DNA of 64,000 nt from Candidatus Micrarchaeia archaeon (GTDB lineage: Archaea; Micrarchaeota; Micrarchaeia; Anstonellales; Bilamarchaeaceae): assembly GCA_041649555.1 (NCBI GenBank), contig JBAZMS010000002.1:67898-131897 (forward strand). Direction: 5' to 3'. Shown here piece after piece: positions 6,855 to 44,979 of this stretch. The notes under the pieces are model-generated. The model was not told where the DNA came from and ran no database searches. It worked only from the letters and a program-made list of their open reading frames with translations. Both the position numbers and the translations under genes were made by a program. Each line of letters begins with the position of its first letter. Within the stretch, counting starts at the first letter, position 1.

Positions 6855-7901
6855 TTAAATCCCCCTAATAAACTCCCCAAACAACTCCCTGCTATCATTT
6901 GGCCCAGGACAGCTTTCAGGATGAAACTGAACAGAAAATATAGGTTTAGAAATATGCCTCATCCCTTCATTACTATTATCCAATAGATTATAATGAGTAA
7001 CTTCAAAACAAGAAGGAACCTTGGAAACAGCAAACCCGTGATTTTGCGTAGTGATTAGAACCTTTTTCCTAAAACAATCATAAACAGGATGATTACTTCC
7101 CCTATGCCCAAACTTCAATTTATAAGTAGAACCTCCAAATGCATGGGCAATACACTGATGTCCAAGACAAATTCCAAACATAGGCAAATCACAAAGTTCT
7201 CTAATAACCTTATGGACATTTTTCAAAAGAGCAGGATCCCCCGGGCCATTTGAAATTACAACTCCGGAAGGATTAAACTTTCTAATCTCCTCGCTTGTAA
7301 AATTATATGGAACAGAAATAACTTCAATTCCTCTTTTATTCAATTCACGGATTATTCCCATCTTTACCCCTAAATCAATCAATACGACCTTCTTATTTCC
7401 ACTTCCAAACCTTTCAACTTTTGAAGTGCCAACCTTTGATACAAAATCAGTCAAAGAATATTCAAATTTCAAATTTTTAATTATCTTTTCAATATCAGGT
7501 TTTTCATTCTCATATACTGCAAGGCAGGATGAAACTACCCCAAATTCTCTTATTTTTTTGGTAATTTCACGGGTATCCACTCCAAAAATTCCTCCAACCC
7601 CAAAATCTTCCAAATACTTATCAAGGCCAGAAGAAAAATCCAACTCCCTTACAACAAACCCTGATACCCAAACCTTGGAACTCTCGCAATTCTTTATATC
7701 CAACCCATAATTTCCAATCAAAGGATAGGTTAAAGTTAAAATCTGCCCAGCATAGCTTGGATCAGTTAACGCTTCCTGATAGCCCTGCATTGAAGTATTA
7801 AACACTAATTCTCCAGTTCTAAAGCCAATTGCCCCAAATCCAGCCCCAAAAAATACACTTCCATCTGATAATATGAGAACCGCATTTTTATTCATAATCA
7901 T
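6855..7901 (-). CDS. carA: carbamoyl-phosphate synthase small (glutaminase) subunit
   Basis: CarA N-domain 'QGYQEALTDPSYAGQILTLTYPLIGNYG' and GATase 'GICLGHQ'. Start moved from the ORF-track value (8033) to ATG 7901 (MIMNKNAVL), which sits 4 nt downstream of a GGAGGT Shine-Dalgarno; 14-nt overlap with the carB stop. Confidence 0.8.
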   Translation of the reverse strand: MIMNKNAVLILSDGSVFFGAGFGAIGFRTGELVFNTSMQGYQEALTDPSYAGQILTLTYPLIGNYGLDIKNCESSKVWVSGFVVRELDFSSGLDKYLEDFGVGGIFGVDTREITKKIREFGVVSSCLAVYENEKPDIEKIIKNLKFEYSLTDFVSKVGTSKVERFGSGNKKVVLIDLGVKMGIIRELNKRGIEVISVPYNFTSEEIRKFNPSGVVISNGPGDPALLKNVHKVIRELCDLPMFGICLGHQCIAHAFGGSTYKLKFGHRGSNHPVYDCFRKKVLITTQNHGFAVSKVPSCFEVTHYNLLDNSNEGMRHISKPIFSVQFHPESCPGPNDSRELFGEFIRGI

Positions 7902-10900
7902 AAAACCTCCGTATCTCATATTCCTCTTTTGAATACTTTTCAATAGCTTCAACAAACTCAACAGCAGTGCGGATATTTGTAATGCATGGAATTCCAAATT
8001 CAATGCTTTTTCTTCGGATAATAAATCCGTCAATATAGCTTTCCTCTTCCTGCGAGGGAATATTAATCACCAGATCTATTTTTCCAAGGTCAATCAATTC
8101 AATTATATCATAGCTTTCTTTTTCATTTCCAAGCTTATTTACAATTCTGATCTCTCCAATTTCACGAAGTTCAAATGCAGTTCCAGGAGTTGCATATAAA
8201 ATAAATCCAAGGGAATGCAGTTTTCTTGCAATCTCCAAAACTTCTTTTCTGTCTTCTTTGCGGACAGTCAAAAGGACACAACCTTTGGAAGCAACACAAA
8301 TCCCACTTGATTTTAATGCCTTATAATACGCTGATTCAAAATCAGAGCCAATTCCCATGCTCTCTCCGGTGCTTTTCATTTCAGGGCCAAGTAAGATATC
8401 CTCTCCGGGAAGTTTAAGAAAAGGAAAAACAACCCCCTTTACTGCATAATGGGTTATTTTCCTTTCTTTTTCTAAAAGTTTTTCACCAAGCATTGATTCA
8501 ACAGCCAGTTTAACCAGGGAAATATCAATTGATTTGGAAAGAAAAGGAACAGTCCTGCTTGCCCGCGGGTTTGCCTCCAAAATATAAATTTCATTGTCCT
8601 TGACTGCAAACTGGATATTCAAAAATCCGGTTATTCCAAGGGAAAGTGAAATCTCCCGGGTATATTTTTTTATTTTCTCAACTATCTTATAGGATAAATT
8701 GAGGGAAGGAATTACAATATTTGCATCCCCTGAATGCACTCCTGCAAACTCAATGTGCTCCATTACTCCTCCAATGAATACATTAGAGCCGTCACATACT
8801 GCATCAACCTCGCATTCAATTGCATTATCAAGGTATTTATCAATTAATACAGGCTTATCTTCGCTTAGTTCAATTGCACTGTCAATATATTTTTCCAATT
8901 CCACTAAAGAAAACACAATCTGCATTCCGCGCCCTGCAATCACATAAGAAGGGCGCACAATTATTGGATAGCCAAGTTTTTGTGCAGCATCAAATGCCTC
9001 TTCTTTTTTTCTTACAGTAAGGCTTGGGGGCTGTTTTATTTTAAGCCTGTCCATCAAATCCTTGAATTTCTCCCTGTCCTCTGCAATGTCTATACTTTCA
9101 AAAGATGTTCCAAGTATTTTAACCCTGTCTTTTAATTTTTCAGCCAATTTAATTGAAGTCTGTCCTCCAAGCTGCACTATGACCCCTAATAAATTCTCAT
9201 CCAATTCATTCTCAATTATATTCAATACGCTCTCATAATCCAAAGGCTCAAAATATAATCTTGAACTCGAATCAAAATCAGTGCTTACTGTTTCAGGGTT
9301 ATTATTAATCATTACAGATTCAATTCCCATCTTCTTTAAGGCAAAGGAGGCCTGAGAGCAGCAATAGTCAAATTCTATTCCCTGTCCAATCCTTATAGGC
9401 CCTGATCCGATAATTATTACTTTTTTCTTTTTCAAAGAAACTGCCTCGTTTTCAGATTCATAAGTGGAATAAAAATAAGGGGTTATTGCCTCAAATTCTC
9501 CAGAACAGCTGTCAACCATTTTATATACCGGAATTATTCCAAAAGATTTCCTGAGATTTCTTATATTCTCTTCTGTTTTTCCCTTCAGGCTTGCAATTTT
9601 AAGATCACTAATCCCAAGTTTTTTATATTCAGATAGGTTTTCTTTTGTAAGAGTTTCATTTTCAATTTTTTTCTCGGTTAAAATCAGTTTTTCAATTCTT
9701 TTCAAAAACCATCTGTTTATTTTTGTAATAGAATAAATCTCCTCGATTGTTTTTCCATCCCTGAAGGCATCAAAGAGTGCAAATAAGCGGAGATTGGTTG
9801 CAGGCTCAAGATGTTTGATATAATCAAATTTAACAGGAATTTTAATCTCAAGCCCTGCCACTGCCTTTAAGAGAGCCTCTTCAAAACTTCTTCCAATTGC
9901 CATAACCTCTCCGGTACTTTTCATCTGTGTTCCAAGGGTTCTTTTTGCAGAAGAAAACTTGTCAAAAGGCCAGCGGGGAATTTTAACCGTTATATAATCA
10001 AGAGATGGTTCAAGCGAGGAGGTTTTTCCAATTATCGGATTTATGATCTCATTTAGGGTTTTTCCAATGGCAATTTTTGCTGCAATGCGCGCAATAGGAT
10101 ATCCAGTAGCTTTTGATGCAAGGGCAGAAGAACGGGAAAGGCGGGGATTTACTTCAATTACGCTGTATTCTCTAGTTTTCCTGTTATATGCAAACTGGAC
10201 ATTGCATGAACCTTGTATTTCAAGAGCCCGCACTATTTTAATTGAAGCATCACGAAATCTTTGGTGCTCTTTATCAGAAAGGGTTTGTGAAGGCGCAACA
10301 ACAATGCTTTCTCCTGTGTGTATTCCCATTGGGTCAAAATTTTCCATATTGCATATGACAATACAATTATCACCCGAATCCCTGACAATCTCATATTCAA
10401 ATTCCTCCCATCCTTTCACGCTTCTCTCAATTAAAACCTCATGATTCATACTAAGCTTGAATGCAACATCCAGCAGGTTTTTAAGTTCGGTTTCATTATT
10501 TGCAAATCCCCCTCCGCTTCCACCAAGGGTAAATGCAGGGCGCACAATTACAGGGTAATTTATTTTCTCGGCATAAGAATAAGCAGAAGAGTGGTCCTTA
10601 ACACTATAGCTTTCAAGTATTGGAATTCCGATTTCTTTCATCAGGGAATTAAATAATTCCCGGCTCTCGGCTTTTTCAATTGAGTTAAAATCAGTTCCAA
10701 TGAGCTTAACATTATATTTTTCAAGTATTCCCTTTTTTTCAAGCTCAACTGCAAGATTGAGTGCAGTCTGCCCTCCGCAGGTTGCAAGAATTGAATCTAT
10801 TCCCTCGTTTATGATTATTTTTTCAATTGTTTTAATATCCAGGGGCTCAATATAAACTGCATCAGCTGTTTGCCTGTCTGTTTGAATTGTTGCAGGGTTA

Positions 10901-11046
10901 GAATTCACCAAAACAACAAATACTTTTTCTTCCTTTAGTGCCCTGCATGCCTGTGTTCCTGAATAATCAAATTCTGCGCTTTGTCCGATTATAATCGGTC
11001 CGGAACCTATTACAAGAACTTTTTTTACATCAGGCATCAAAAACAC
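7888..11046 (-). CDS. carB: carbamoyl-phosphate synthase large subunit
   Basis: 1052 aa; duplicated ATP-grasp halves (VIGSGPIIIGQSAEFDYSG ... IIGSGPIRIGQGIEFDYC) and a C-terminal MGS-like domain. Confidence 0.9.
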   Translation of the reverse strand: MFLMPDVKKVLVIGSGPIIIGQSAEFDYSGTQACRALKEEKVFVVLVNSNPATIQTDRQTADAVYIEPLDIKTIEKIIINEGIDSILATCGGQTALNLAVELEKKGILEKYNVKLIGTDFNSIEKAESRELFNSLMKEIGIPILESYSVKDHSSAYSYAEKINYPVIVRPAFTLGGSGGGFANNETELKNLLDVAFKLSMNHEVLIERSVKGWEEFEYEIVRDSGDNCIVICNMENFDPMGIHTGESIVVAPSQTLSDKEHQRFRDASIKIVRALEIQGSCNVQFAYNRKTREYSVIEVNPRLSRSSALASKATGYPIARIAAKIAIGKTLNEIINPIIGKTSSLEPSLDYITVKIPRWPFDKFSSAKRTLGTQMKSTGEVMAIGRSFEEALLKAVAGLEIKIPVKFDYIKHLEPATNLRLFALFDAFRDGKTIEEIYSITKINRWFLKRIEKLILTEKKIENETLTKENLSEYKKLGISDLKIASLKGKTEENIRNLRKSFGIIPVYKMVDSCSGEFEAITPYFYSTYESENEAVSLKKKKVIIIGSGPIRIGQGIEFDYCCSQASFALKKMGIESVMINNNPETVSTDFDSSSRLYFEPLDYESVLNIIENELDENLLGVIVQLGGQTSIKLAEKLKDRVKILGTSFESIDIAEDREKFKDLMDRLKIKQPPSLTVRKKEEAFDAAQKLGYPIIVRPSYVIAGRGMQIVFSLVELEKYIDSAIELSEDKPVLIDKYLDNAIECEVDAVCDGSNVFIGGVMEHIEFAGVHSGDANIVIPSLNLSYKIVEKIKKYTREISLSLGITGFLNIQFAVKDNEIYILEANPRASRTVPFLSKSIDISLVKLAVESMLGEKLLEKERKITHYAVKGVVFPFLKLPGEDILLGPEMKSTGESMGIGSDFESAYYKALKSSGICVASKGCVLLTVRKEDRKEVLEIARKLHSLGFILYATPGTAFELREIGEIRIVNKLGNEKESYDIIELIDLGKIDLVINIPSQEEESYIDGFIIRRKSIEFGIPCITNIRTAVEFVEAIEKYSKEEYEIRRFYDYE

Positions 11047-11081
11047 TTTCGAGAATTAGAATTTTATATCAACTGAACTTA

Positions 11082-11128
11082 TTTATATATCTTTTGTTTC
11101 AATTAGAACAATAAAGTTGCAGGGGATA
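11082..11128. repeat. 47-bp direct repeat copy 1 (contains TTTATATA box)
   Basis: 'TTTATATATCTTTTGTTTCAATTAGAACAATAAAGTTGCAGGgGATA' identical (42/42 core) to 12647-12693. Confidence 0.8.
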
Positions 11129-11152
11129 TTATTTTATAATTTAAAAACTGAT

Positions 11153-11260
11153 AAAAAAGGTTATGAAAATAAAGGTTATAAAAATAACCTAAAATATTAA
11201 GAATATAAATATAATACCTAATAAAATAATAGATACCTTTAAAAAAGGTTATGAAAATAA
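11153..11260. promoter_or_regulatory. upstream region of the Arch_ATPase gene with two exact 20-nt direct repeats and a 7-bp-arm inverted repeat
   Basis: 'AAAAAAGGTTATGAAAATAA' at 11153-11172 and 11241-11260; 'AGGTTAT-AAAA-ATAACCT' at 11173-11190. Confidence 0.5.
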
Positions 11261-11267
11261 TCTTATT

Positions 11268-12641
11268 ATGAAATTCTACAACAGGGAAGCTGAAAAAAAG
11301 GCATTGGAAGATGCAATAAAAAAATCCCCGGCCCTAATTCTAATTAAAGGCAGAAGGAGAGTTGGAAAAACCGCCCTGATACTTAATTCAATAAAAGAAA
11401 ATGCAATCTATTTTTTTATAGACAATAAAAAAACTGAAAAAAATCTTTTATTTGAATTCGAAGAAATATTAAAAAAGGAGTTGAATCTTCCAAATTACAT
11501 AAAAATTGAAAAATGGGAGCATTTCTTTCAAATTATTTTTGAAAGCAAAAAAACAATTATACTAGACGAATTCCAGAGAATTCTGGGCATCTCCCCTTCT
11601 GCAATAAACCAACTGCAAAAATTCTGGGATTTGAATCCTCCAAAAAATGCCCTGATACTCTCCGGCTCAAATATAGGAATGATAAAAAAAATATTCATAA
11701 ATGAGGGTTCCCCACTATTTAAAAGAGCGACAATGGACATGACCTTAAAATCATTGGATTTTTCGGTATGCAAAAAAATACTAAAAGATCTTGGAATAAA
11801 AGATTTTGAAAACCAGTTTAAAATCTATTCAATTATAGGCGGGATTCCTTATTACTATAGTCTTTTGCAGAATGAAACTATAGAATCATGGAAGGATGTT
11901 GTAAAAATCATATTTCTCAATCCGTTTTCTCCGCTAAAAAATGAGGTAAATGATACATTAATAGAAGGTTTTGGAAAAGAGCATTTAAGTTATTATGCAG
12001 TATTAAATGCAATTGCCCTTGGAAAAACCACAAAAAAAGAAATCTCTGATTTTTCAGGAATATTGCCTTCTTCCATTTCCCCTTATTTATATGATTTGGG
12101 AAATCTTTTGGATATAATAGAATATGAAATTCCGATAACTGAAAAAAAACCGTGGAAAACAAAGCTTGGAAGATTTATTCTAAAGGATAATTTCTTCAGA
12201 TTTTGGTTTAAATTTATATTTAGGCATCAAAGTATTTATGAAAAAGCGAATTATTCATATTTATTTGAATTAATAGAAAAGGATTTTGATTCATTTTCAG
12301 GATTTTCATTTGAAAATGTTGCAAGGGAATTTATACTAAAATTAAACAATAAAAATAATCTTCCGGTTAAATTTGACAAAATCGGCAGATGGTGGGATAG
12401 AAAAGGTCAGGAAATAGACATGGTTCTAATTTCTGATAGGGATGATGCAATAATGCTTATTGAATGCAAATGGAAGGAAGATGCAAACCCGGAAATGATA
12501 TTGTCCTCTCTAATGGAAAAGGAAAAATTCCTAAACCATAAAAAGAAAAATGTTTTCTATGGAATTATTGCAAAAAGTTTTAAAAATAAAACAAAAAATG
12601 CAATAGTTTTTGATATTAATGATCTGGAAAAAAATTTATAA
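11268..12641 (+). CDS. archaeal ATPase (Arch_ATPase/AAA + DUF234-type C-terminus)
   Basis: Walker A 'GRRRVGKTAL', Walker B-like 'IILDEFQ', and a C-terminal 'IGRWWDRKGQEIDMVLI...LIECKWKE' DUF234 signature. Confidence 0.7.
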   Translation: MKFYNREAEKKALEDAIKKSPALILIKGRRRVGKTALILNSIKENAIYFFIDNKKTEKNLLFEFEEILKKELNLPNYIKIEKWEHFFQIIFESKKTIILDEFQRILGISPSAINQLQKFWDLNPPKNALILSGSNIGMIKKIFINEGSPLFKRATMDMTLKSLDFSVCKKILKDLGIKDFENQFKIYSIIGGIPYYYSLLQNETIESWKDVVKIIFLNPFSPLKNEVNDTLIEGFGKEHLSYYAVLNAIALGKTTKKEISDFSGILPSSISPYLYDLGNLLDIIEYEIPITEKKPWKTKLGRFILKDNFFRFWFKFIFRHQSIYEKANYSYLFELIEKDFDSFSGFSFENVAREFILKLNNKNNLPVKFDKIGRWWDRKGQEIDMVLISDRDDAIMLIECKWKEDANPEMILSSLMEKEKFLNHKKKNVFYGIIAKSFKNKTKNAIVFDINDLEKNL

Positions 12642-12646
12642 TTTCT

Positions 12647-12693
12647 TTATATATCTTTTGTTTCAATTAGAACAATAAAGTTGCAGGAGATAC
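12647..12693. repeat. 47-bp direct repeat copy 2 = promoter of the downstream ACT-domain gene
   Basis: Same sequence as 11082-11128; its TTTATATA box is ~25 nt upstream of the inferred transcription start and the gene starts at 12697. Confidence 0.8.
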
Positions 12694-12696
12694 AAA

Positions 12697-13299
12697 ATGA
12701 AAAAGGAAAATATTTCAAATCTAATTTCTTTATATGTGAAAAGAAGGCCATTCATAAAAGAATCACTAAGAGATGGAATAATAAACTACAGCTCACTTGC
12801 ACGAAAAATTTCCTATGAGCTATATGGCAATCATTCAAAAACAGGAGCAATAAAAGTTGCACTTCAAAGATTATCAAAAAAACTAATCGAAAAGGAAGAG
12901 GATTTAGAGCAAAAGATTTTAGCAGTTCTAAAAAACAGCTCATTGGATATAAAAAATAAGATTGCAGTGGTCATTTCTTCATCAGAGTTAAATATAAAAC
13001 CCATTTCGTATGCAAAAAGCGATTTATCAGTAACTTATATATTAAAAGAAGAGCAGCTTTTGGATCTTAAAAAAGAAAGAAAAATAAAAGCAGTGGAAAA
13101 AAATCTGAATCTGATAACAATTAAAAGCAGGGAGGAATTGGAAAATACCCCGGGGGTTTTATCAATGATTCTTGGAGCATTGGCAATTGAAGGAATAAAT
13201 ATACAAGAAATCATCTCCTGCTACACTGATACATTAATAGTTGTAAAAGAATCAGATACTTCAAGGGCTTATGATATCCTTAATGCACTGCTAAAGTAA
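12697..13299 (+). CDS. ACT-domain-containing protein
   Basis: C-terminal ~70 aa 'LITIKSREELENTPGVLSMILGALAIEGINIQEI...LIVVKESDTSRAYDILNALL' has the ACT beta-alpha-beta-beta-alpha-beta pattern. Confidence 0.5.
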   Translation: MKKENISNLISLYVKRRPFIKESLRDGIINYSSLARKISYELYGNHSKTGAIKVALQRLSKKLIEKEEDLEQKILAVLKNSSLDIKNKIAVVISSSELNIKPISYAKSDLSVTYILKEEQLLDLKKERKIKAVEKNLNLITIKSREELENTPGVLSMILGALAIEGINIQEIISCYTDTLIVVKESDTSRAYDILNALLK

Positions 13300-38354: not shown

Positions 38355-41162
38355 ATGTCTGAATTAAAAAAAGTAAGCGATGCAATATGGAAAATTGAAA
38401 AAGAGGAAAGTATGAATGTCCCTGCATATGTTTTTGGAACAGAAAGAATAGTCCAGAAAATGAAGGGAGATAAGACATTTATCCAATTAAAAAATGCAGC
38501 GTCCCTTCCAGGAATAATTGATCGGGCCTGCGTTATGCCCGATGGCCATGAAGGATATGGTTTTCCAATTGGAGGAGTTGCAGCCTTTGATGCAAATGAG
38601 GGAATTGTTTCCCCCGGAGGCATAGGGTATGATATTAACTGCCTTCATCCAGATTCAAAAATTTTAACTTCCCTTGGCTATACAAAAAAAATAAAAGAGT
38701 TTGAAAATGATTTTTCCTTTATGGTCCAGACAAATGGAACAATTCTAATGCATGGAAAATCTTCCCTATGCACTGGAAATTTAAATCGAAATGCAATTTC
38801 ATTTATGTATAAACAATATGAAGGAATTCTTTACTCTGTTTCAACTCTTTCAAATGCAGTTTCTCTAACTCCTGACCATCCAATATTTACTATAAATGGA
38901 AAAAAACTTCCAGATCAATTAAAAGAGGGCGATTTAATCCTGGTATATCCTTTCGAAGGAGTTCAATATTCCCCACTTGATGGAAATGAAGAAGAAATTG
39001 CAAGATATGCAAAATTACTTGGATATTTGACTGGAGACGGAACCCTGACTTATTGTGGAAAAAAGTTGAGAGTAACTTTTTTTGGAAAGGAAAAAGATCT
39101 TGAAAAAATAAAAGAGGATGTAACTTTTTTAGGTTATCATTCCCATTTGCGTACAAGAACAAGAAAACATAAAATAAATGAAAAAGAATTTATTTCAACT
39201 AATTCAGAGCTTCATGTGTATTCTGATGAATTTGCAAAAAAACTGCTCGAACTTGAAGCTCCACTCGGAAATAAGACAAAAACCATTTTTAGAATTCCAA
39301 ACTGGATAAGGCAATCTCCATTATGGATAAAAAGATTATATCTTGCATCTCTTTTTGGAGCAGAGCTTTCTAGTCCAAAAACCTCTTCAAAAACCGGATT
39401 TTATATGCCTATTTTAAGTATGAACAAGGAAGAAAAATTAGAAGAAAATTTAAGGGGGTTTTTTCTTGATTTAACAGAGCTTCTCAAGGAATTTTCAGTA
39501 GAGGTTTCAAAAATTGCCTTTGTTGAAAAAATAAAAGATAAGATAAGATTAAGATTGGAAATTGATGGAACTGAAGAAAATATTGAAAATTTATATTCAA
39601 AAATAGGTTTTGAGTATAATGAAGATAGGCTGTTTCTTGGGCTTTGCACGATTTTATATATAAGATATAAGAGGCAATATCGAGATAAAAGAGAAGAAAT
39701 AAGGGCAAAGGTAGTTGAATATAAATCAAAAGGGTTTTCCTTAAAGGAACTTCAAAAAAGATTCTCTGGAAAATGGGCAAACAATAGATTTATCGAAAGA
39801 GCATATTATGAAAATAAAAGTGCTAGAGCTCCATTGTCAATTAAAAGTTTTAATGATTTTGCAGCCAAACAAAAAGAATATTATTCTTCCTTTGGTGCAT
39901 TAGCCTCGCCTATTTTAGATATTTCAAAAACTAATTATTCTGGAAAGGTTTTTGATTTTACTATAGAAGGAGTTCATAAATTTATTGCACAGCAAATAGT
40001 AGTTTCAAATTGCGGCGTCAGGCTGTTAACAACTAATTTAACCGAAGACCAAGTCCGCCCAAAAATAAAAGAATTATGCGATAAATTATTCAAAAATGTT
40101 CCTTCAGGAGTTGGTTCAGAAAGCAAACTAAAAATCTCTCATGAAGAACTAGACAGTGCAGTAGAGCTTGGAATTGATTGGGCAATAGAAAAAGGATATG
40201 GCAGGAAAGAAGATAAACAGAGAACAGAAGAATATGGAAGAATGATTGGAGCTGATGCAACAGCAGTATCTCCTACTGCAAAAAAAAGAGGAAAAACACA
40301 ATTTGGAACGCTTGGTGCGGGAAATCATTTTTTAGAAATTCAAAAAATAGAAAAAATACATGATGAAAATTCTGCAAAATCATTTGGTCTTGAAGAAGGA
40401 AAAATTGCAGTAATGATTCATTGCGGTTCTAGAGGCTATGGCCATCAAATCTGTTCTGATGCCCTTCCAATACTTTTAACTTATGCAAGGAAAAATAATA
40501 TTTCACTTCCTGATCCAGAATTAGTTTATGCTCCAATACAAAGTGAGGAAGGACAAAAATACCTAAAAGGAATGCAATGCGGTGTAAATTATGCATTCAT
40601 AAACAGGCATGTAATTATGCACTGGGTAAGAGAAACCTTTGATGAGGTATTTGGAAAAGGAACTTCTGATTCAATGAATCTTGTATACGATGTTGCGCAT
40701 AATATCGCAAAATTTGAAAAACACCTTGTTAATGGAAAAACCCAAGAATTATTGGTGCATAGAAAAGGAGCAACAAGGGCATTTCCAAAAGGAAGGGAAG
40801 AATTGCCCATTGAATATCGCTCAATCGGACAGCCGGTTTTAATTCCAGGTTCAATGGGAACTGCAAGCTATGTTTTAGTTGGAGAGGAAAAAGGCCTTGA
40901 GGTTTCCTGGGGTTCAACCTGCCATGGTGCAGGAAGAGTGATGAGCAGGGGGGAGGCAATAAGGTCTTTTAGGGGAGATAAATTAAGAGATGAACTCTGG
41001 AACCAAAATAAAATATATGTTCGCGCAACTAACCCCAAAGTAATTGCAGAAGAGGCTCCAAATGCTTATAAGGATGTTGATGAAGTAGTTGAGAGCGTTG
41101 TAAAGGCAGGGATAAGCAAAATTACTGCAAGAATGAAACCTATAGGGGTAGTTAAAGGATAA
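38355..41162 (+). CDS. rtcB: tRNA-splicing ligase RtcB, interrupted by an intein
   Basis: Exteins: 'MPDGHEGYGFPIGGVAAF', 'GGIGYDIN|C...N|CGVRLLTT', 'GAGNHFLEIQ', 'HCGSRGYGHQ', 'HNIA', 'HRKGATRA' (metal/GMP site residues). 935 aa minus a 457-aa intein = 478 aa, the usual RtcB size. Confidence 0.85.
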   Translation: MSELKKVSDAIWKIEKEESMNVPAYVFGTERIVQKMKGDKTFIQLKNAASLPGIIDRACVMPDGHEGYGFPIGGVAAFDANEGIVSPGGIGYDINCLHPDSKILTSLGYTKKIKEFENDFSFMVQTNGTILMHGKSSLCTGNLNRNAISFMYKQYEGILYSVSTLSNAVSLTPDHPIFTINGKKLPDQLKEGDLILVYPFEGVQYSPLDGNEEEIARYAKLLGYLTGDGTLTYCGKKLRVTFFGKEKDLEKIKEDVTFLGYHSHLRTRTRKHKINEKEFISTNSELHVYSDEFAKKLLELEAPLGNKTKTIFRIPNWIRQSPLWIKRLYLASLFGAELSSPKTSSKTGFYMPILSMNKEEKLEENLRGFFLDLTELLKEFSVEVSKIAFVEKIKDKIRLRLEIDGTEENIENLYSKIGFEYNEDRLFLGLCTILYIRYKRQYRDKREEIRAKVVEYKSKGFSLKELQKRFSGKWANNRFIERAYYENKSARAPLSIKSFNDFAAKQKEYYSSFGALASPILDISKTNYSGKVFDFTIEGVHKFIAQQIVVSNCGVRLLTTNLTEDQVRPKIKELCDKLFKNVPSGVGSESKLKISHEELDSAVELGIDWAIEKGYGRKEDKQRTEEYGRMIGADATAVSPTAKKRGKTQFGTLGAGNHFLEIQKIEKIHDENSAKSFGLEEGKIAVMIHCGSRGYGHQICSDALPILLTYARKNNISLPDPELVYAPIQSEEGQKYLKGMQCGVNYAFINRHVIMHWVRETFDEVFGKGTSDSMNLVYDVAHNIAKFEKHLVNGKTQELLVHRKGATRAFPKGREELPIEYRSIGQPVLIPGSMGTASYVLVGEEKGLEVSWGSTCHGAGRVMSRGEAIRSFRGDKLRDELWNQNKIYVRATNPKVIAEEAPNAYKDVDEVVESVVKAGISKITARMKPIGVVKG
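38640..40010 (+). mobile_element. intein with LAGLIDADG homing-endonuclease domain inside rtcB
   Basis: Begins with Cys (CLHPDSKILTSLGY) right after the extein 'GYDIN'. Two LAGLIDADG-type motifs ('LLGYLTGDGTL', 'LYLASLFGAELS'). Ends '...VVSN' followed by extein 'CGVRL'. Confidence 0.75.
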
Positions 41163-41175
41163 TGTAATTCCTGTT

Positions 41176-42141
41176 TTATTTTTTAATTAAATAATTATAT
41201 CCAGGTGTCCATTCATCAGTTCTAAGAATTACTGAATCTATCGTATTTATTACATTTGGAAATTTTTCCTTTAATTTTTTAATTATTCCATAGTATTCAT
41301 CATAATTTTTAATCACGAATTCAAGTTCTATTCTCCAAATATTTCTTATAAAATATTGGATTTGAGGTATTTGGCTGCAATATTCCAATAACATCTTTTC
41401 CTCCTCTTTGGTATAACTGTCAATTTTGATCATTGCCTTATAATGTTCAAGATTTAGTTTTATCAAATCAATTTGGACTCTATATTGGAGTATTATCTCT
41501 AATTTTTCCATCCTTTTTATTTTTGAAATTACAGTTGTAGGGTTTGTTGAGGCATATCTTGCTATCTCCACTGTAGAACTTCTTGCATTGGAAATGAGAT
41601 ACTCTAATATTTTTTGATCTGTTTTATCTAATTTATTCTGGATAATTTTACCTGCAAATTCTACAGGTTTACATAGCTCATTATTAAAATACATTTTTGG
41701 ATATTGCTTAACATCTAAAAGCCAGTCTCCATAAAAATCAATAATTATGTCTTTAAATTCAGAAATAATCTTATTTTTTAAATCATAAAAAACATAAATA
41801 TCATCTGAATATGCTGCAAATATAAGATCCCATGAGCCGTCGCATTCTCCCATCCAGTATATATTTATAAATTTTCTAAGAGAATCGATAAGAACTTCTT
41901 TTCTGTTTGGAATATTTTTTAATTTAATATATACTTTAAATAACTGAAAACCCATTTTATTTGGATTTATTGAGGTTGTAAATCCAGTGAGTATCCCATT
42001 TTTTATGAGCTGATTTATTCTATATGCAACTGTTTGTCTTGAACGGCGTATTTTTTTGCCAAGTTCACTATCTGAAATTCTGCAATTTTTATCTAATTCA
42101 CTTAAGATTTGTTTGTCGATTTTATCGAGTTTATATTCCAT
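41176..42141 (-). CDS. tandem Lrp/AsnC-type transcriptional regulator (two HTH + RAM modules)
   Basis: 'DKIDKQILSELDKNCRISDSELGKKIRRSRQTVAYRINQLIKNGIL' and a second copy 'DKTDQKILEYLISNARSSTVEIARYASTNPTTVISKIKRMEKL'. ATG at 42141 (MEYKL) preferred over the GTG at 42150. Confidence 0.6.
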   Translation of the reverse strand: MEYKLDKIDKQILSELDKNCRISDSELGKKIRRSRQTVAYRINQLIKNGILTGFTTSINPNKMGFQLFKVYIKLKNIPNRKEVLIDSLRKFINIYWMGECDGSWDLIFAAYSDDIYVFYDLKNKIISEFKDIIIDFYGDWLLDVKQYPKMYFNNELCKPVEFAGKIIQNKLDKTDQKILEYLISNARSSTVEIARYASTNPTTVISKIKRMEKLEIILQYRVQIDLIKLNLEHYKAMIKIDSYTKEEEKMLLEYCSQIPQIQYFIRNIWRIELEFVIKNYDEYYGIIKKLKEKFPNVINTIDSVILRTDEWTPGYNYLIKK

Positions 42142-42250
42142 AAATATCACTTATATTTAGCATTTTAAAAGAAAAAGTATTAAAATAGTATGTTTTTGCA
42201 AAAAATTGAAAGATATATTTAATATATTTCTAATGTTCTAATAGATGTGG
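42114..42250. repeat. bidirectional promoter region, copy A (Lrp <-> radical SAM)
   Basis: ~130-nt segment ~90% identical to 43513-43650, including the first 9 codons of the Lrp gene on the minus strand. Confidence 0.75.
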
Positions 42251-42257
42251 TGATAAT

Positions 42258-43433
42258 ATGAAAAGGATGGTATTACCTCAAAATGTTGAAAAGGTGTTTT
42301 CGGGAAAAATGCCTAACGGTTTTATTAACAATGTAAATGGCTGGTTTTTTACCAAAAGGGAGGTAAAACAAGCAGCAAAGAAAGGTAAATTGCTAACCTT
42401 AGATGTGGATATGAGTGGTAAAGGAATATGTTCACTCAAATGCCCTCATTGCTTTAGAAGATCAAATGAATTTTTAAAAATGAAAGTGCGTGATTTTGTA
42501 AGTTATGATGAGTTACTTGTAAGAATTGATGAAGCAAGAAAACTTGGTCTTAAATCTGTAAAATTAATTGGCCCAGGAGAGCCTTTAGAGGATCCAAACT
42601 TCATAAAACTTTTAATTGCCTTAAGAAAAAGGAATATAACCCCCATAGTGTTTACTAAATCATATATTCTTGGAGATGATTCTCTTTGCCAAAAACTTCA
42701 TGGAATGGATGGAAAGACAATGATTAAACTTTTAAAAGAATTGGATGTGAGTATTTTATTTGGCGTAACTTCTTTTAATTCTGAATATGAAGATGGGGTA
42801 GTCGGCAGAATTGGATTTCATAAAGCAAGAGAAGAAGCAATAAGAAGACTTTGTGAGGCAGGATTTAATGAATTTGTTCCAGGACAGGCAACAAGACTTG
42901 CAATGGTATTTAATCCAATAACCCCTTATAATATAAACGAAATTTATGATGCTTATGTGTGGGCAAGAGAGAGAAATATACATCCAATATCATCCCCAAC
43001 AATGGTTGCAGGAAAAGGACTTGATACAATATCTTCCATACTTCCAGATAAAGATAAGTTGATTGACCTTTATGTTAAAATAAACCTTTGGGCAATAGAA
43101 CATGAAGTTTATACCCTTAGTGATATTAAAAAATATGGAGTAGCATCCTATGTTGGGGGCCACTGGTGCAATCAGATCTCAGTTGGAATGTTTATGAGAG
43201 GAGATGGAATAGTTCTTAGATGCCCTGGTGATGATATAACCATCCAAGGAGATATTAATGAACAATCTTTGACTCAAATATGGAACAATAGTGAAAACAA
43301 AAGAAAATACGCAGGCCAGTTTAACAATGGGTGTCCTCCAAAAGATGGACAGAATAGTACTGGTGCAAGATCTTTTCCGGAAGGGTTTTTTGTCGAAGTT
43401 AAAAGACGCATATTGGATTATTTTAAAAGGTAA
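42258..43433 (+). CDS. radical SAM enzyme with C-terminal Cys-rich (SPASM/twitch-like) region
   Basis: 'CSLKCPHC' (Cx3Cx2C), 'LIGPGEPLEDPNF' (GGEPL-like), C-terminal Cys in 'GHWCNQ', 'LRCPGDD', 'NNGCPP'. Confidence 0.7.
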   Translation: MKRMVLPQNVEKVFSGKMPNGFINNVNGWFFTKREVKQAAKKGKLLTLDVDMSGKGICSLKCPHCFRRSNEFLKMKVRDFVSYDELLVRIDEARKLGLKSVKLIGPGEPLEDPNFIKLLIALRKRNITPIVFTKSYILGDDSLCQKLHGMDGKTMIKLLKELDVSILFGVTSFNSEYEDGVVGRIGFHKAREEAIRRLCEAGFNEFVPGQATRLAMVFNPITPYNINEIYDAYVWARERNIHPISSPTMVAGKGLDTISSILPDKDKLIDLYVKINLWAIEHEVYTLSDIKKYGVASYVGGHWCNQISVGMFMRGDGIVLRCPGDDITIQGDINEQSLTQIWNNSENKRKYAGQFNNGCPPKDGQNSTGARSFPEGFFVEVKRRILDYFKR

Positions 43434-43512
43434 ATCCTTTTATCACCAAAATAGCTAAACCCCCTTTCTTTAGAAGGGGGATTGCTATTATATTTTATGT
43501 CTACTTATTATC

Positions 43513-43650
43513 TGTCGATTTTATCGAGTTTGTATTCCATAAATATCACATATATTTGGCATTTTAAAAGAAAAAGTATTAAAATATTATGTTTTTGCAA
43601 AAAATTAAAGAGAATATTTAATATATAAGTTCTGTTCTAATGTTATATAA
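43513..43650. repeat. bidirectional promoter region, copy B (upstream of the 439-aa gene), carrying a truncated Lrp 5' fragment
   Basis: Minus strand reads ATG GAA TAC AAA CTC GAT AAA ATC GAC AGA TAA (MEYKLDKIDR*), a truncated duplicate of the Lrp start. 'AAGGTGGTAAA' Shine-Dalgarno before ATG 43660. Confidence 0.75.
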
Positions 43651-43659
43651 GGTGGTAAA

Positions 43660-44979
43660 ATGTCAAATTTAGAAGGTTATTTAAATAATGTGGATGGTGT
43701 TACTAAACAAGCGATCCAGAAAAAAGTATTAACAAGAATGGATCTTAAAGGAGAGAATAGATTCTATAATTCTATAGAAGCGAAAACTAAGATTAGATTG
43801 TTTGATACATTAGTTTATCTCTTACATTACTATTCAGGGTCTGATGAGGAAACAGTTAAACAGAACACATTACAAAAGTTAATTGAATTTTGTGTGAATC
43901 ATGGAGCATTTTTCAATTTGTTAGAACTATCTGATGATAAAGAGTTACCTCCTATTGTAAGAGAAGCATTTAAGAATAATATGGCAAATGCAATTTTACA
44001 TTTTATTAAAAACCACCATTTTTCTCTTTATGAAATAGTATATATATCCAAAAGTGAGAACTTTCATCCATTAATAAGACAAGTTGCTATGGATAACTTA
44101 AATGATTCAGCCCTATATCATATTGAAAATGGAGCTAGCGTGATTGATCTAATAAGCATAGCTAATGATACCAAAATGTTTTCTCCATCTGTTAGAAATA
44201 TTGCTTCTGATGATATAAAAATTAGGACAAAGTATTATATAGAACATACAGTAAAAGAAAAAAACTGGCCTGGTGCTGACTCCTTTATCAAAAGCTTTAA
44301 TACTCTTTCGAAAAATCAAATTTCTTTATCTGTGTTGCAAGACGATCAATATCATAAGTTGATTGAAGAATTAATATGTGGGGTTTTTTCTATTGAGTAT
44401 AACGAATATAGAAAGGATAGTTCTAATGGGAATTTTGCTATTATATTTGTAAATATAGTAATTTTGTTATTCCAAGCAATACCTGAAAATTTCTATGAAT
44501 CTGTTTCACAGAAATTTTTTGAAGTAATGAAACGGAATCCTACGATCGTATATATGTTAACAAATGATGAGGCTCTCCCACTATCTTTACGCGAATTTTT
44601 TGGATCTAAATACTTAGATTTGATCGAAAATAATTCGCATGATAAAATAAAATTCTGTAATAAAATGGTTAAAATATGTAATAGTGAAAATTCCCCTTCA
44701 TCAATGAGAATATATGCTGGAAAACAATATGTGTGTGCCCTTTTAGATACTTATATGCACCCGGAGGATCTTTTACTTAAATTAATTAAAAATGAAAAAA
44801 CTTTAGGAGAGGTAAGAGTGTTTGCCCAAATAAAATTGAATCAGATCTTTAAAAAAGTAATTGATGAATTAAAATTAAATGAAAGAAATCCTCTTGAAAG
44901 GGACGGAATTATAAGTAAACCTAAATTTAGATTTATAAAAAAACTAGTCAAACCTTTTAGGCGTCTAGTTAAAACATAA
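43660..44979 (+). CDS. hypothetical alpha-helical protein (439 aa)
   Basis: No motif recognised; driven by the duplicated promoter. Confidence 0.3.
   Translation: MSNLEGYLNNVDGVTKQAIQKKVLTRMDLKGENRFYNSIEAKTKIRLFDTLVYLLHYYSGSDEETVKQNTLQKLIEFCVNHGAFFNLLELSDDKELPPIVREAFKNNMANAILHFIKNHHFSLYEIVYISKSENFHPLIRQVAMDNLNDSALYHIENGASVIDLISIANDTKMFSPSVRNIASDDIKIRTKYYIEHTVKEKNWPGADSFIKSFNTLSKNQISLSVLQDDQYHKLIEELICGVFSIEYNEYRKDSSNGNFAIIFVNIVILLFQAIPENFYESVSQKFFEVMKRNPTIVYMLTNDEALPLSLREFFGSKYLDLIENNSHDKIKFCNKMVKICNSENSPSSMRIYAGKQYVCALLDTYMHPEDLLLKLIKNEKTLGEVRVFAQIKLNQIFKKVIDELKLNERNPLERDGIISKPKFRFIKKLVKPFRRLVKT

Follow-up and report, generated by a model that had tools for sequence, protein, structure and literature searches.

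A putative single-gene defence cassette bracketed by a duplicated promoter in a Micrarchaeota genome, and its probable origin by insertion with long target duplication

How does a single gene, with no transposase or integrase beside it, come to lie between two copies of one promoter? The question is raised by a 64,000-nt stretch of DNA from a Candidatus Micrarchaeia archaeon (GenBank assembly GCA_041649555.1, contig JBAZMS010000002.1, positions 67,898 to 131,897; hereafter the window), in which a gene for an AAA+ ATPase fused to a nuclease stands between carB and a divergently oriented gene for a protein with an ACT domain, and in which the same 47 nt occur on either side of it. We propose that a 1517-bp cassette, consisting of the ATPase gene and its leader, very probably inserted into the divergent promoter region of about 100 nt between carB and the ACT gene and thereby duplicated 47 bp of its target. 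The proposal rests on the structure of the repeat, on relatives in which the same site is empty, and on a survey of flanking duplications across the gene family.

The duplicated promoter and its empty counterparts

The direct repeat reported in an earlier, sequence-only reading of this DNA is present, with two copies of TTTATATATCTTTTGTTTCAATTAGAACAATAAAGTTGCAGG(G/A)GATA (Table 1) that agree at 46 of 47 positions. Their first 42 nt match exactly, the single mismatch falls at repeat position 43 (G at 11124, A at 12688), and both close on GATA; ungapped extension carries the similarity to 53 nt, 50 of them identical (11076-11128 against 12640-12692). Copy 1 starts 44 nt beyond the start codon of carB. 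The true ATG of carB is the one at 11037 (minus strand), and the listed GTG at 11046 is an upstream extension of the reading frame; the N-terminus that follows from this choice, MPDVKKVLVIGSGP, can be aligned with those of orthologues that begin right beside the intergenic region. Between the ATPase stop codon (12639-12641) and copy 2 lie 4 nt, and another 4 nt separate the end of copy 2 from the ATG of the ACT gene. Pfam agrees with the gene identities that had been read from the letters, returning carB on the left, ATPase_2 and DUF234 (with AAA_14) in the middle and DUF7523 with ACT on the right.

The sequence-only reading had allowed that its case would fall if the 47-mer were a frequent promoter element found at dozens of loci. 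Within the window, over which all repeat counts were made, it is nothing of the kind: the 42-mer at up to 3 mismatches has two matches on both strands where none is expected from 100 shuffles, and the 47-mer at up to 12 substitutions still occurs at those two places only. It corresponds to the orthologous carB/ACT intergenic sequence of relatives.

Copy 2 is, by position and conservation, the probable promoter of the ACT gene. Its TATA box (TTTATATA, 12646-12653) lies 51 nt upstream of the ATG and its Shine-Dalgarno sequence, GGAG (12686-12689), 7-11 nt upstream, so that transcription would begin near 12676 if the usual archaeal spacing from TATA box to start applies; in an alignment with four orthologous intergenic regions, both blocks recur at matching places. 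The sequence-only reading had called copy 2 clearly the promoter of this gene, a function that we infer from its placement and conserved elements. Copy 1 retains the native upstream context and now points into the cassette. The TATA-like element assigned to carB, about 25 nt upstream of the carB ATG, lies in a block (AGAATTAGAATTTTATATCA) that is conserved in the two closest relatives, L003 and L158. It thus appears that carB has kept its own promoter to the left of the insertion, and that promoter copy 1 would read into the cassette.

The closest matches come from metagenome-assembled genomes of Micrarchaeota (DPANN archaea), of which L003 was located by scanning species-representative genomes with the ACT protein and the others through further ACT homologues. 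In L003 (ACT protein 85% identical, carB-ACT spacer of 93 nt), L158 (84%, 97 nt), L159 (71%, 124 nt) and L160/L161 (67%, 109 nt), carB on the minus strand and the ACT gene on the plus strand are joined with one copy of the repeat and no ATPase gene, which is the outcome that the empty-site comparison suggested in the sequence-only reading had called for. When the empty site of the window is reconstructed from the left flank, one repeat copy and the right flank, it is colinear with all four relatives in the alignment, and across these sites the blocks TTTA-AT (the TATA box), TTTTG and a G-rich Shine-Dalgarno sequence just before the start codon are conserved. In the more distant L162 (ACT protein 62% identical) argG takes the place of carB upstream and the ACT gene adjoins argG/argH; the ACT gene thus neighbours genes of the arginine pathway in the relatives, be it carB or argG/argH.

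The repeat copies also indicate the relative age of the event. The two copies in the window differ from each other at 1 of 47 positions, and each differs from L158 at 8 and from L003 at 9, which places the duplication long after the divergence from the closest relatives sampled; and as the outgroups at 67-71% identity are all empty, the filled state is the derived one. The insertion is therefore both derived and recent. Together with the rarity of the repeat within the window, the empty sites support the earlier proposal that the ATPase gene inserted into, and duplicated, its target promoter.

Table 1. Features of the carB-ACT locus (window positions) and position of the leader module at the window locus and at four homologous loci
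Feature	Position	Strand	Basis
carB, carbamoyl-phosphate synthase large subunit, left neighbour of target, intact	7888..11037	-	Pfam CPSase_L_D2/D1/D3, MGS
TATA-like element TGATATAAAA, probable carB promoter, outside the duplication	11062..11071	-	read from sequence; putative function
Target-site duplication copy 1, ACT-gene TATA box through Shine-Dalgarno	11082..11128	+	colinear with the single copy in L003, L158, L159 and L160
Inserted cassette, 1517 bp	11129..12645	+	absent from four orthologous loci
Cassette leader / regulatory module	11129..11267	+	module recurs upstream of homologues; putative operator role
Distal operator-like palindrome half-sites	AAGGTTAT at 11157 and 11172; ATAACCTA at 11184	+	
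AT-rich, TATA-like spacer of leader	about 11192-11234	+	
Proximal operator-like site	palindrome ACCTTTAAAAAAGGT 11235-11249; AAGGTTAT at 11245; ATAATCTT at 11257	+	
Gene for AAA+ ATPase + winged helix + PD-(D/E)xK nuclease, 457 aa	11268..12641	+	Pfam ATPase_2/DUF234; PADLOC PDC-S27
Target-site duplication copy 2, probable ACT-gene core promoter	12646..12692	+	position and conservation
DUF7523 + ACT domain gene, right neighbour of target	12697..13299	+	Pfam
Leader module (AAGGTTAT..ATAACCTT type), window	11150-11267		
Leader module, L014	3000-3116		
Leader module, L017	5885-6000		
Leader module, L019	5890-6000		
Leader module, L020	4665-4778		

The protein, its leader and its other homes

The cassette contains a leader and one open reading frame, whose product matches only ATPase_2, DUF234 and AAA domains in Pfam (DUF234 at 94.8 bits against a cut-off of 22.5, ATPase_2 at 60.4 against 33.2, and AAA_14). 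It is also matched by the PADLOC profile PDLC04984 of PDC-S27 (E=4.6e-40, residues 3-406), as a full-length member of a candidate single-gene defence family in which an ATPase is fused to a PD-(D/E)xK nuclease and which is especially abundant in Archaea (2026 survey, PMC12988326). The protein shares this full-length architecture and archaeal setting with PDC-S27; we found no report in the literature on that family of movement of the gene or of a conserved upstream operator module. Across 23 homologues the Walker A residues G28..G33-K34-T35, the Walker B residues D100-E101 and the residues D384 / E399-x-K401 are invariant. In the AlphaFold model (pLDDT 92) an N-terminal AAA+ domain is followed by a helical/winged-helix region and a C-terminal alpha-beta-beta-beta-alpha-beta unit, with D384 on strand 2 and E399/K401 on strand 3 of the C-terminal core, as in the PD-(D/E)xK arrangement. 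Sequence matches to solved structures are to the archaeal AAA+ ATPases 2fna and 2qen, with TnsC weak, and fold matches begin with 2fna and continue with STAND ATPases (CED-4, plant resistosomes, MalT), ORC/Cdc6, RuvB and MuB. We therefore treat the product as a candidate antiviral ATPase-nuclease of family PDC-S27. The suspicion that ATPases of this kind are mobile or defensive gains from the PDC-S27 match and from the enrichment of the family for flanking target duplications described below.

Inspection of the cassette for other signs of mobility gave negative results. Pfam detects no integrase or transposase domain in the insert; the longest inverted match between the cassette ends is 7 nt, no better than in shuffled sequence, leaving the element without terminal inverted repeats; and the window holds no tRNA anywhere, which disposes of a tRNA attachment site. 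An RNA element in the leader or the repeat was likewise set aside, neither having an Rfam match at E<=1. The G+C content is 27.6% for the cassette, 13.7% for its 139-nt leader and 32.4% for the window, and composition proved uninformative as evidence of foreignness, both the overall and the third-position G+C content of the reading frame lying within the range of the window. A search for a recent donor found none: the closest homologue among 5.8 billion proteins is 59% identical, and viral contigs hold relatives at 33% identity or less only.

The leader contains two operator-like sites separated by an AT-rich spacer (Table 1), the proximal one ending 4 nt before the ATPase ATG. Across homologues the distal palindrome has the form AAGGTTAT-N4-8-ATAACCTT with an extra half-site before it, and in both the window and L014 the half-sites are found at -111/-96/-84 and -35/-23/-11 from the ATG. 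A two-palindrome module in the same register precedes the homologues of L014, L017, L019, L020 and L072, which lie in unrelated contexts, and it was found upstream of every homologue of the clade that was examined; in L020 and L072 both half-sites have changed jointly, to AAGATT..AATCTT and AATGATTAT..ATAATCATT. We infer from this that the palindromes are operators, most simply bound by the winged helix of the protein itself, and RNA hairpins would fit the symmetry of the leader equally well. The module looks like a device for autoregulation that travels with its gene. No right-end copy of the operator motif exceeds chance expectation, and a 27-nt resemblance of the operator to the 3' end of the reading frame (repeat family D10) was dropped, homologues not conserving it. 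In Bacteroidetes-type relatives CCGAAAYGGCYGTTTCGG occurs twice, and the cassette of a gut element carries GTAACTTAC-type repeats.

The nearest homologues, 52-59% identical, each occupy a different context: between cas4 and cas1; between genes for a solute-binding protein (Pfam SBP_bac_3) and an M42 peptidase, near an IS200-type gene; between genes for an MNT-type nucleotidyltransferase and an RNA 3'-terminal phosphate cyclase (RTC); and after spt5. The cassette is thus a discrete unit that occurs in unrelated contexts. Furthermore, the first half-site directly follows the stop codon of the preceding gene in L014 and L019, and in the window the ATPase stop codon lies 4 nt from copy 2, so that the mobile unit would be essentially the leader plus the reading frame. 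Homologues that are 52-58% identical show no detectable flanking repeats. Relatives with the ATPase and without the duplication had been named in the sequence-only reading as a finding that would tell against it, and such homologues do exist, but they sit in unrelated loci and are separate, probably older insertions.

The homologue between cas4 and cas1 (L014 3117-4505, also L015 and L016; 52% identical) is embedded in a CRISPR adaptation module of Micrarchaeota, where its leader begins at the cas4 stop codon, its own stop codon overlaps the start of cas1, and no flanking repeat was found. This neighbourhood led us to consider integration of the Cas1 or casposon type for the window, and we rejected it: no Cas1 gene lies in the insert or immediately beside it, where carB and the ACT gene stand, and the cas4/cas1 homologue is itself without a flanking repeat. 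An integron cassette was rejected too, as the 4 nt between the stop codon and the repeat leave no room for an attC site.

Flanking duplications across the gene family

An alignment-based scan of metagenome and viral contigs gathered 137 further loci. For each complete gene the 350-nt flanks on its upstream and downstream sides were compared and scored by the best direct repeat without gaps, with 750 equal-length intervals shifted along the same loci as controls. Repeats scoring at least 16 flank 11 of 120 loci against 2 of the 750 control intervals, and once near-identical cassettes are collapsed they flank 10 of 88 distinct cassettes (Fisher p about 4e-7). The repeats of the family are 25, 36, 46, 47, 48, 50, 67 and about 97 nt long, and the downstream copy mostly starts 0-19 nt past the stop codon. 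A fixed stagger of about 47 bp, to which the first four cases (46-50 nt) pointed, was abandoned when gapped alignment and empty sites gave 25, 36, 67 and about 97 nt. That bacterial relatives of the gene have similarly long and variable duplications suggests that the whole gene family moves by insertion with long duplication of the target. Two of the eleven cases, L054 and L029, are multicopy short repeats and are not counted as secure. An empty site for L107 sought through its terminator sequence was uninformative, the matches sharing only a 24-nt hairpin because the repeat contains a common terminator. In a group of Bacteroidetes type (L045, L049, L054, L060) homology stops exactly at the stop codon, and in L045 the repeat begins at the next base.

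Besides the window, two members of the family provide verified pairs of filled and empty sites. The cassette of L119, a unit of 1565 nt with a sigma-70-type promoter, operator-like repeats, the reading frame and a terminator, has counterparts of 87-91% identity in thirteen related gut viral contigs, with flanks unrelated to those of L119. The homology stops exactly at a 25-bp direct repeat, AGGAGGRGATGCGTATGGRCTACAA, that comprises the Shine-Dalgarno sequence, the ATG and the first codons of the next gene. A protein-based search found the empty junction, with the flanking genes adjacent and a single 25-mer between them, in 78 of 79 related contigs; an exact-pattern search for the same site had no matches. 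Since the 25-mer is absent beside the cassette at its other site in the gut viral contigs, the repeat of L119 derives from the target. In L111 a 67-bp duplication spans the tail of a terminator, the intergenic spacer, the Shine-Dalgarno sequence and about nine codons of the downstream gene; its left copy has decayed, with GGAGG turned into GGCGA and ATG into GTG, and L249 and L250 represent the empty site. In all three verified cases (25, 47 and 67 bp) the cassette is co-oriented with the downstream gene, whose expression signals are the part duplicated.

Two neighbouring observations belong here. The junction targeted in L119 holds a different insert of about 770 nt, without obvious target duplication, in a related viral contig (L172 2218-3018); two small reading frames in it resemble a toxin-antitoxin pair in size and arrangement only, and the junction seems to be a hotspot of insertion. 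In the control scan, a 41-nt repeat, ACCACATCGACCTGCTGTGCCGTGGAAACCCGATACAAACAATA, was found around a segment of about 1.3 kb lying some 2 kb upstream of the ATPase homologue in L115, and this segment may be a repeat-bracketed gene of another family.

The window itself contains a second gene between direct repeats. A radical SAM/SPASM gene (42258-43433) is bracketed by 134-nt repeats, 88% identical, at 42109-42242 and 43508-43641. Copy 1 takes in the first 33 nt of a divergent Lrp/AsnC gene (41176-42141, minus strand) and the shared promoter region, and copy 2, which carries a pseudo 5' end of the Lrp/AsnC gene, is placed just upstream of the open reading frame at 43660-44979. The pair of Lrp and radical SAM genes is kept in the more distant L164 (64.5% and 68% identity), and the closer L163 is without the radical SAM gene. 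The likely course of events is a duplication of older date and, in L163, a later deletion mediated by the repeats. Duplications of promoter regions around single genes are therefore not unique to the ATPase in this genome, and flanking repeats make the genes between them easy to lose. Also in the window, the RtcB tRNA-splicing ligase gene (38355-41162) contains an intein (Pfam Intein_splicing) inside a 935-residue RtcB.

Routes of insertion and relation to known elements

In the model that we favour, nicks or breaks on the two strands of the target would have arisen about 47 nt from each other, the cassette would have been joined between them as a linear copy, and the single-stranded flanks would have been filled in to give the direct repeat. 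The joining would be of a repair or illegitimate type and not the work of a transposase with a fixed stagger, against which both the variable length of the duplications and the lack of end motifs argue. Because the 47 bp run from the TATA box to the Shine-Dalgarno sequence, the ACT gene would retain a complete core promoter in copy 2, and insertions that duplicate downstream expression signals in this way would survive because they are non-polar.

Several observations weigh against this model. With the closest homologue so distant there is no known donor, and neither the incoming molecule nor its ends are visible. The repeat was counted within the window only. The contig is metagenome-assembled, and a k=31 re-assembly of the sample from which the same protein comes breaks at the repeat. 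The radical SAM gene is flanked by repeats and yet apparently ancestral, so that such repeats do not always mark an incoming gene in this genome. Within the family, the repeats of L107 and L032 include terminator- or REP-like sequence found elsewhere and are not counted as secure, and some of the family's repeats may have other origins.

Two rival explanations dispense with a recent insertion at this site. The chromosome might be empty, and the ATPase segment a separate circle or part of another strain that was threaded into the contig through the shared 42-mer. The source is indeed a metagenome-assembled genome, and in the Logan k=31 assembly (L001, L002; SRR8542065) the ATPase lies on its own 1582-nt contig that ends in the last and first 30 nt of the repeat, while the ACT contig begins inside the repeat; the G/A difference at repeat position 43 fits either topology. 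However, 1582 nt is the length expected of a chromosomal repeat-cassette-repeat arrangement at k=31 (1522 unique + 2 x 30), the 42-nt repeat is far shorter than the reads and the k-mers of standard metagenome assemblers, the deposited assembly resolves it within a 263-kb contig, and independent assemblies show the same architecture for other family members, all of which makes an artefact very improbable. The two ends of the Logan contig overlap by 18 nt, the assembly breaking at the 42-nt exact repeat, and the many database homologues on contigs of 1.5-1.75 kb may bear the same signature of repeat-flanked cassettes in short-k assemblies. Scarcely credible, to our minds, is an ancestral ATPase gene that was already flanked by repeats and was deleted independently in each lineage that is now empty. 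Recombination between repeats does leave an empty site with one copy, and it probably did so at the radical SAM gene, present in L164 and absent from L163. Here the gene would have to have been lost at least three or four times independently (L003/L158, L159, L160), the ATPase occupies this site in none of the relatives, the closest homologues of the ATPase lie in unrelated loci, and the copies are 98% identical where orthologues have diverged by 17-19%, a discrepancy that only gene conversion between the copies would remove.

Two other explanations accept an insertion and differ from our model in how it came about. A circle carrying its own 47-nt copy could have recombined with the chromosomal copy in a Campbell-type or site-specific event, through an integrase in trans or the host RadA. 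Direct repeats of 40-60 nt are typical of attL/attR, and integrative elements of tyrosine recombinases share with this locus direct repeats of tens of bp around the inserted DNA; the k=31 assembly graph fits a 1564-bp circle of repeat plus cassette equally well, and units flanked by repeats can be excised and go back into the same site in other cells. Unlike such elements, the insert and its neighbours (carB and the ACT gene) contain no integrase gene, no tRNA is involved, and the repeat is target-derived intergenic DNA, so specific to this lineage that the closest relatives differ by 8-9 positions and an incoming element would have to have resided here already. The 25-mer of L119, present at the empty target in 78 contigs and absent beside the other site of the cassette, argues in the same direction, and we regard the circle as improbable, although an integrase acting in trans is conceivable. 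Alternatively, the cassette might be a one-gene transposon-like element whose own ATPase-nuclease cuts the target with a long stagger and promotes insertion. Its sole protein does join an AAA+ ATPase, a DNA-binding winged helix and a conserved PD-(D/E)xK nuclease, it bears a weak likeness in sequence and structure to TnsC and MuB, both ATPases of transposition, flanking duplications are about 37-fold enriched in the family, and related elements carry the same cassette at two sites. Such self-mobilisation is nevertheless unlikely. The likeness to TnsC and MuB goes no further than the general AAA+ fold; the cassette lacks terminal inverted repeats and conserved end motifs, the operator half-sites being at the left end only; the duplications vary from 25 to about 97 bp, unlike those of any known transposase; and restriction-modification genes of all types share the mode of insertion (PMC2853133), which points to a generic route. 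If self-mobilisation were true, the protein cutting intergenic targets with a wide stagger, it would constitute a new kind of transposition, whose target duplications are long and variable, in Archaea and Bacteria, and would supply the mechanism that published insertions of this type lack.

Those insertions are the closest known counterpart of the locus. The mode known as "insertion with long target duplication" came to light in a comparison of Helicobacter pylori genomes (Nobusato et al. 2000, Gene 259:99) and was extended to restriction systems of types I-IV in many bacteria, double-strand breakage being suggested as a common factor and no mechanism given (Furuta et al. 2010, PMC2853133). 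By the definition used there, the flanking repeats exceed 30 bp, the empty locus has the sequence once, and the insert brings along no further gene for mobility. At the present locus the repeat measures 47 nt, the empty loci of the relatives hold a single copy, and the insert of 1517 bp (<20 kb) has no other mobile-element gene; its cargo departs from the restriction-modification type, being a single ATPase-nuclease gene with no methyltransferase. Like the published insertions, this one involves a small defence-type unit without integrase or transposase and a repeat above 30 bp whose length varies between events, and the 47 bp seen here compare with 46 bp in two restriction-modification cases from Haemophilus influenzae (PMC2853133). 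A solitary nuclease gene, an mcrA homologue, has also been reported as cargo (PMC2993543). The differences are that the cargo here belongs to the candidate family PDC-S27, that the duplicated segment is a complete core promoter, that the insertions recur across one gene family in both domains, and that the host is a DPANN archaeon, the published cases that we found being all bacterial. The only archaeal mention that we found is an insertion of ISH2 with a 55-bp duplication (PMC7002104). The locus is, in these terms, an archaeal, PDC-S27 case of a known class of gene insertion.

Insertion sequences, DNA transposons and casposons offer a looser parallel. Typical insertion sequences duplicate 2-15 bp of target at a fixed length, and casposons 14-15 bp. 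The cassette resembles such elements in being a discrete segment that occurs at different sites with a target-site duplication around it, and differs from them in that it lacks a DDE, HUH, serine, tyrosine or Cas1 transposase as well as terminal inverted repeats; its duplication of 47 bp, within a family range of 25 to about 97 bp, is neither short nor fixed.

The locus provides a clean archaeal case with four empty-site controls, of which we found no example in the literature, and the gene it carries comes from a candidate defence family that ranks among the most abundant in Archaea. Two further verified pairs of filled and empty sites accompany it, and members of the family travel as tight units of promoter, operator and gene; the recurrence across the family and the conserved operator module are, to our knowledge, unreported. 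Such loci, for instance the gut-element cassette at its two sites, lend themselves as defined natural substrates to tests of how single defence genes can spread in the absence of a transposase. Finally, the duplication of downstream expression signals would explain how these genes can land in promoter regions without silencing their neighbours, as the gene downstream receives a fresh copy of the signals it needs.

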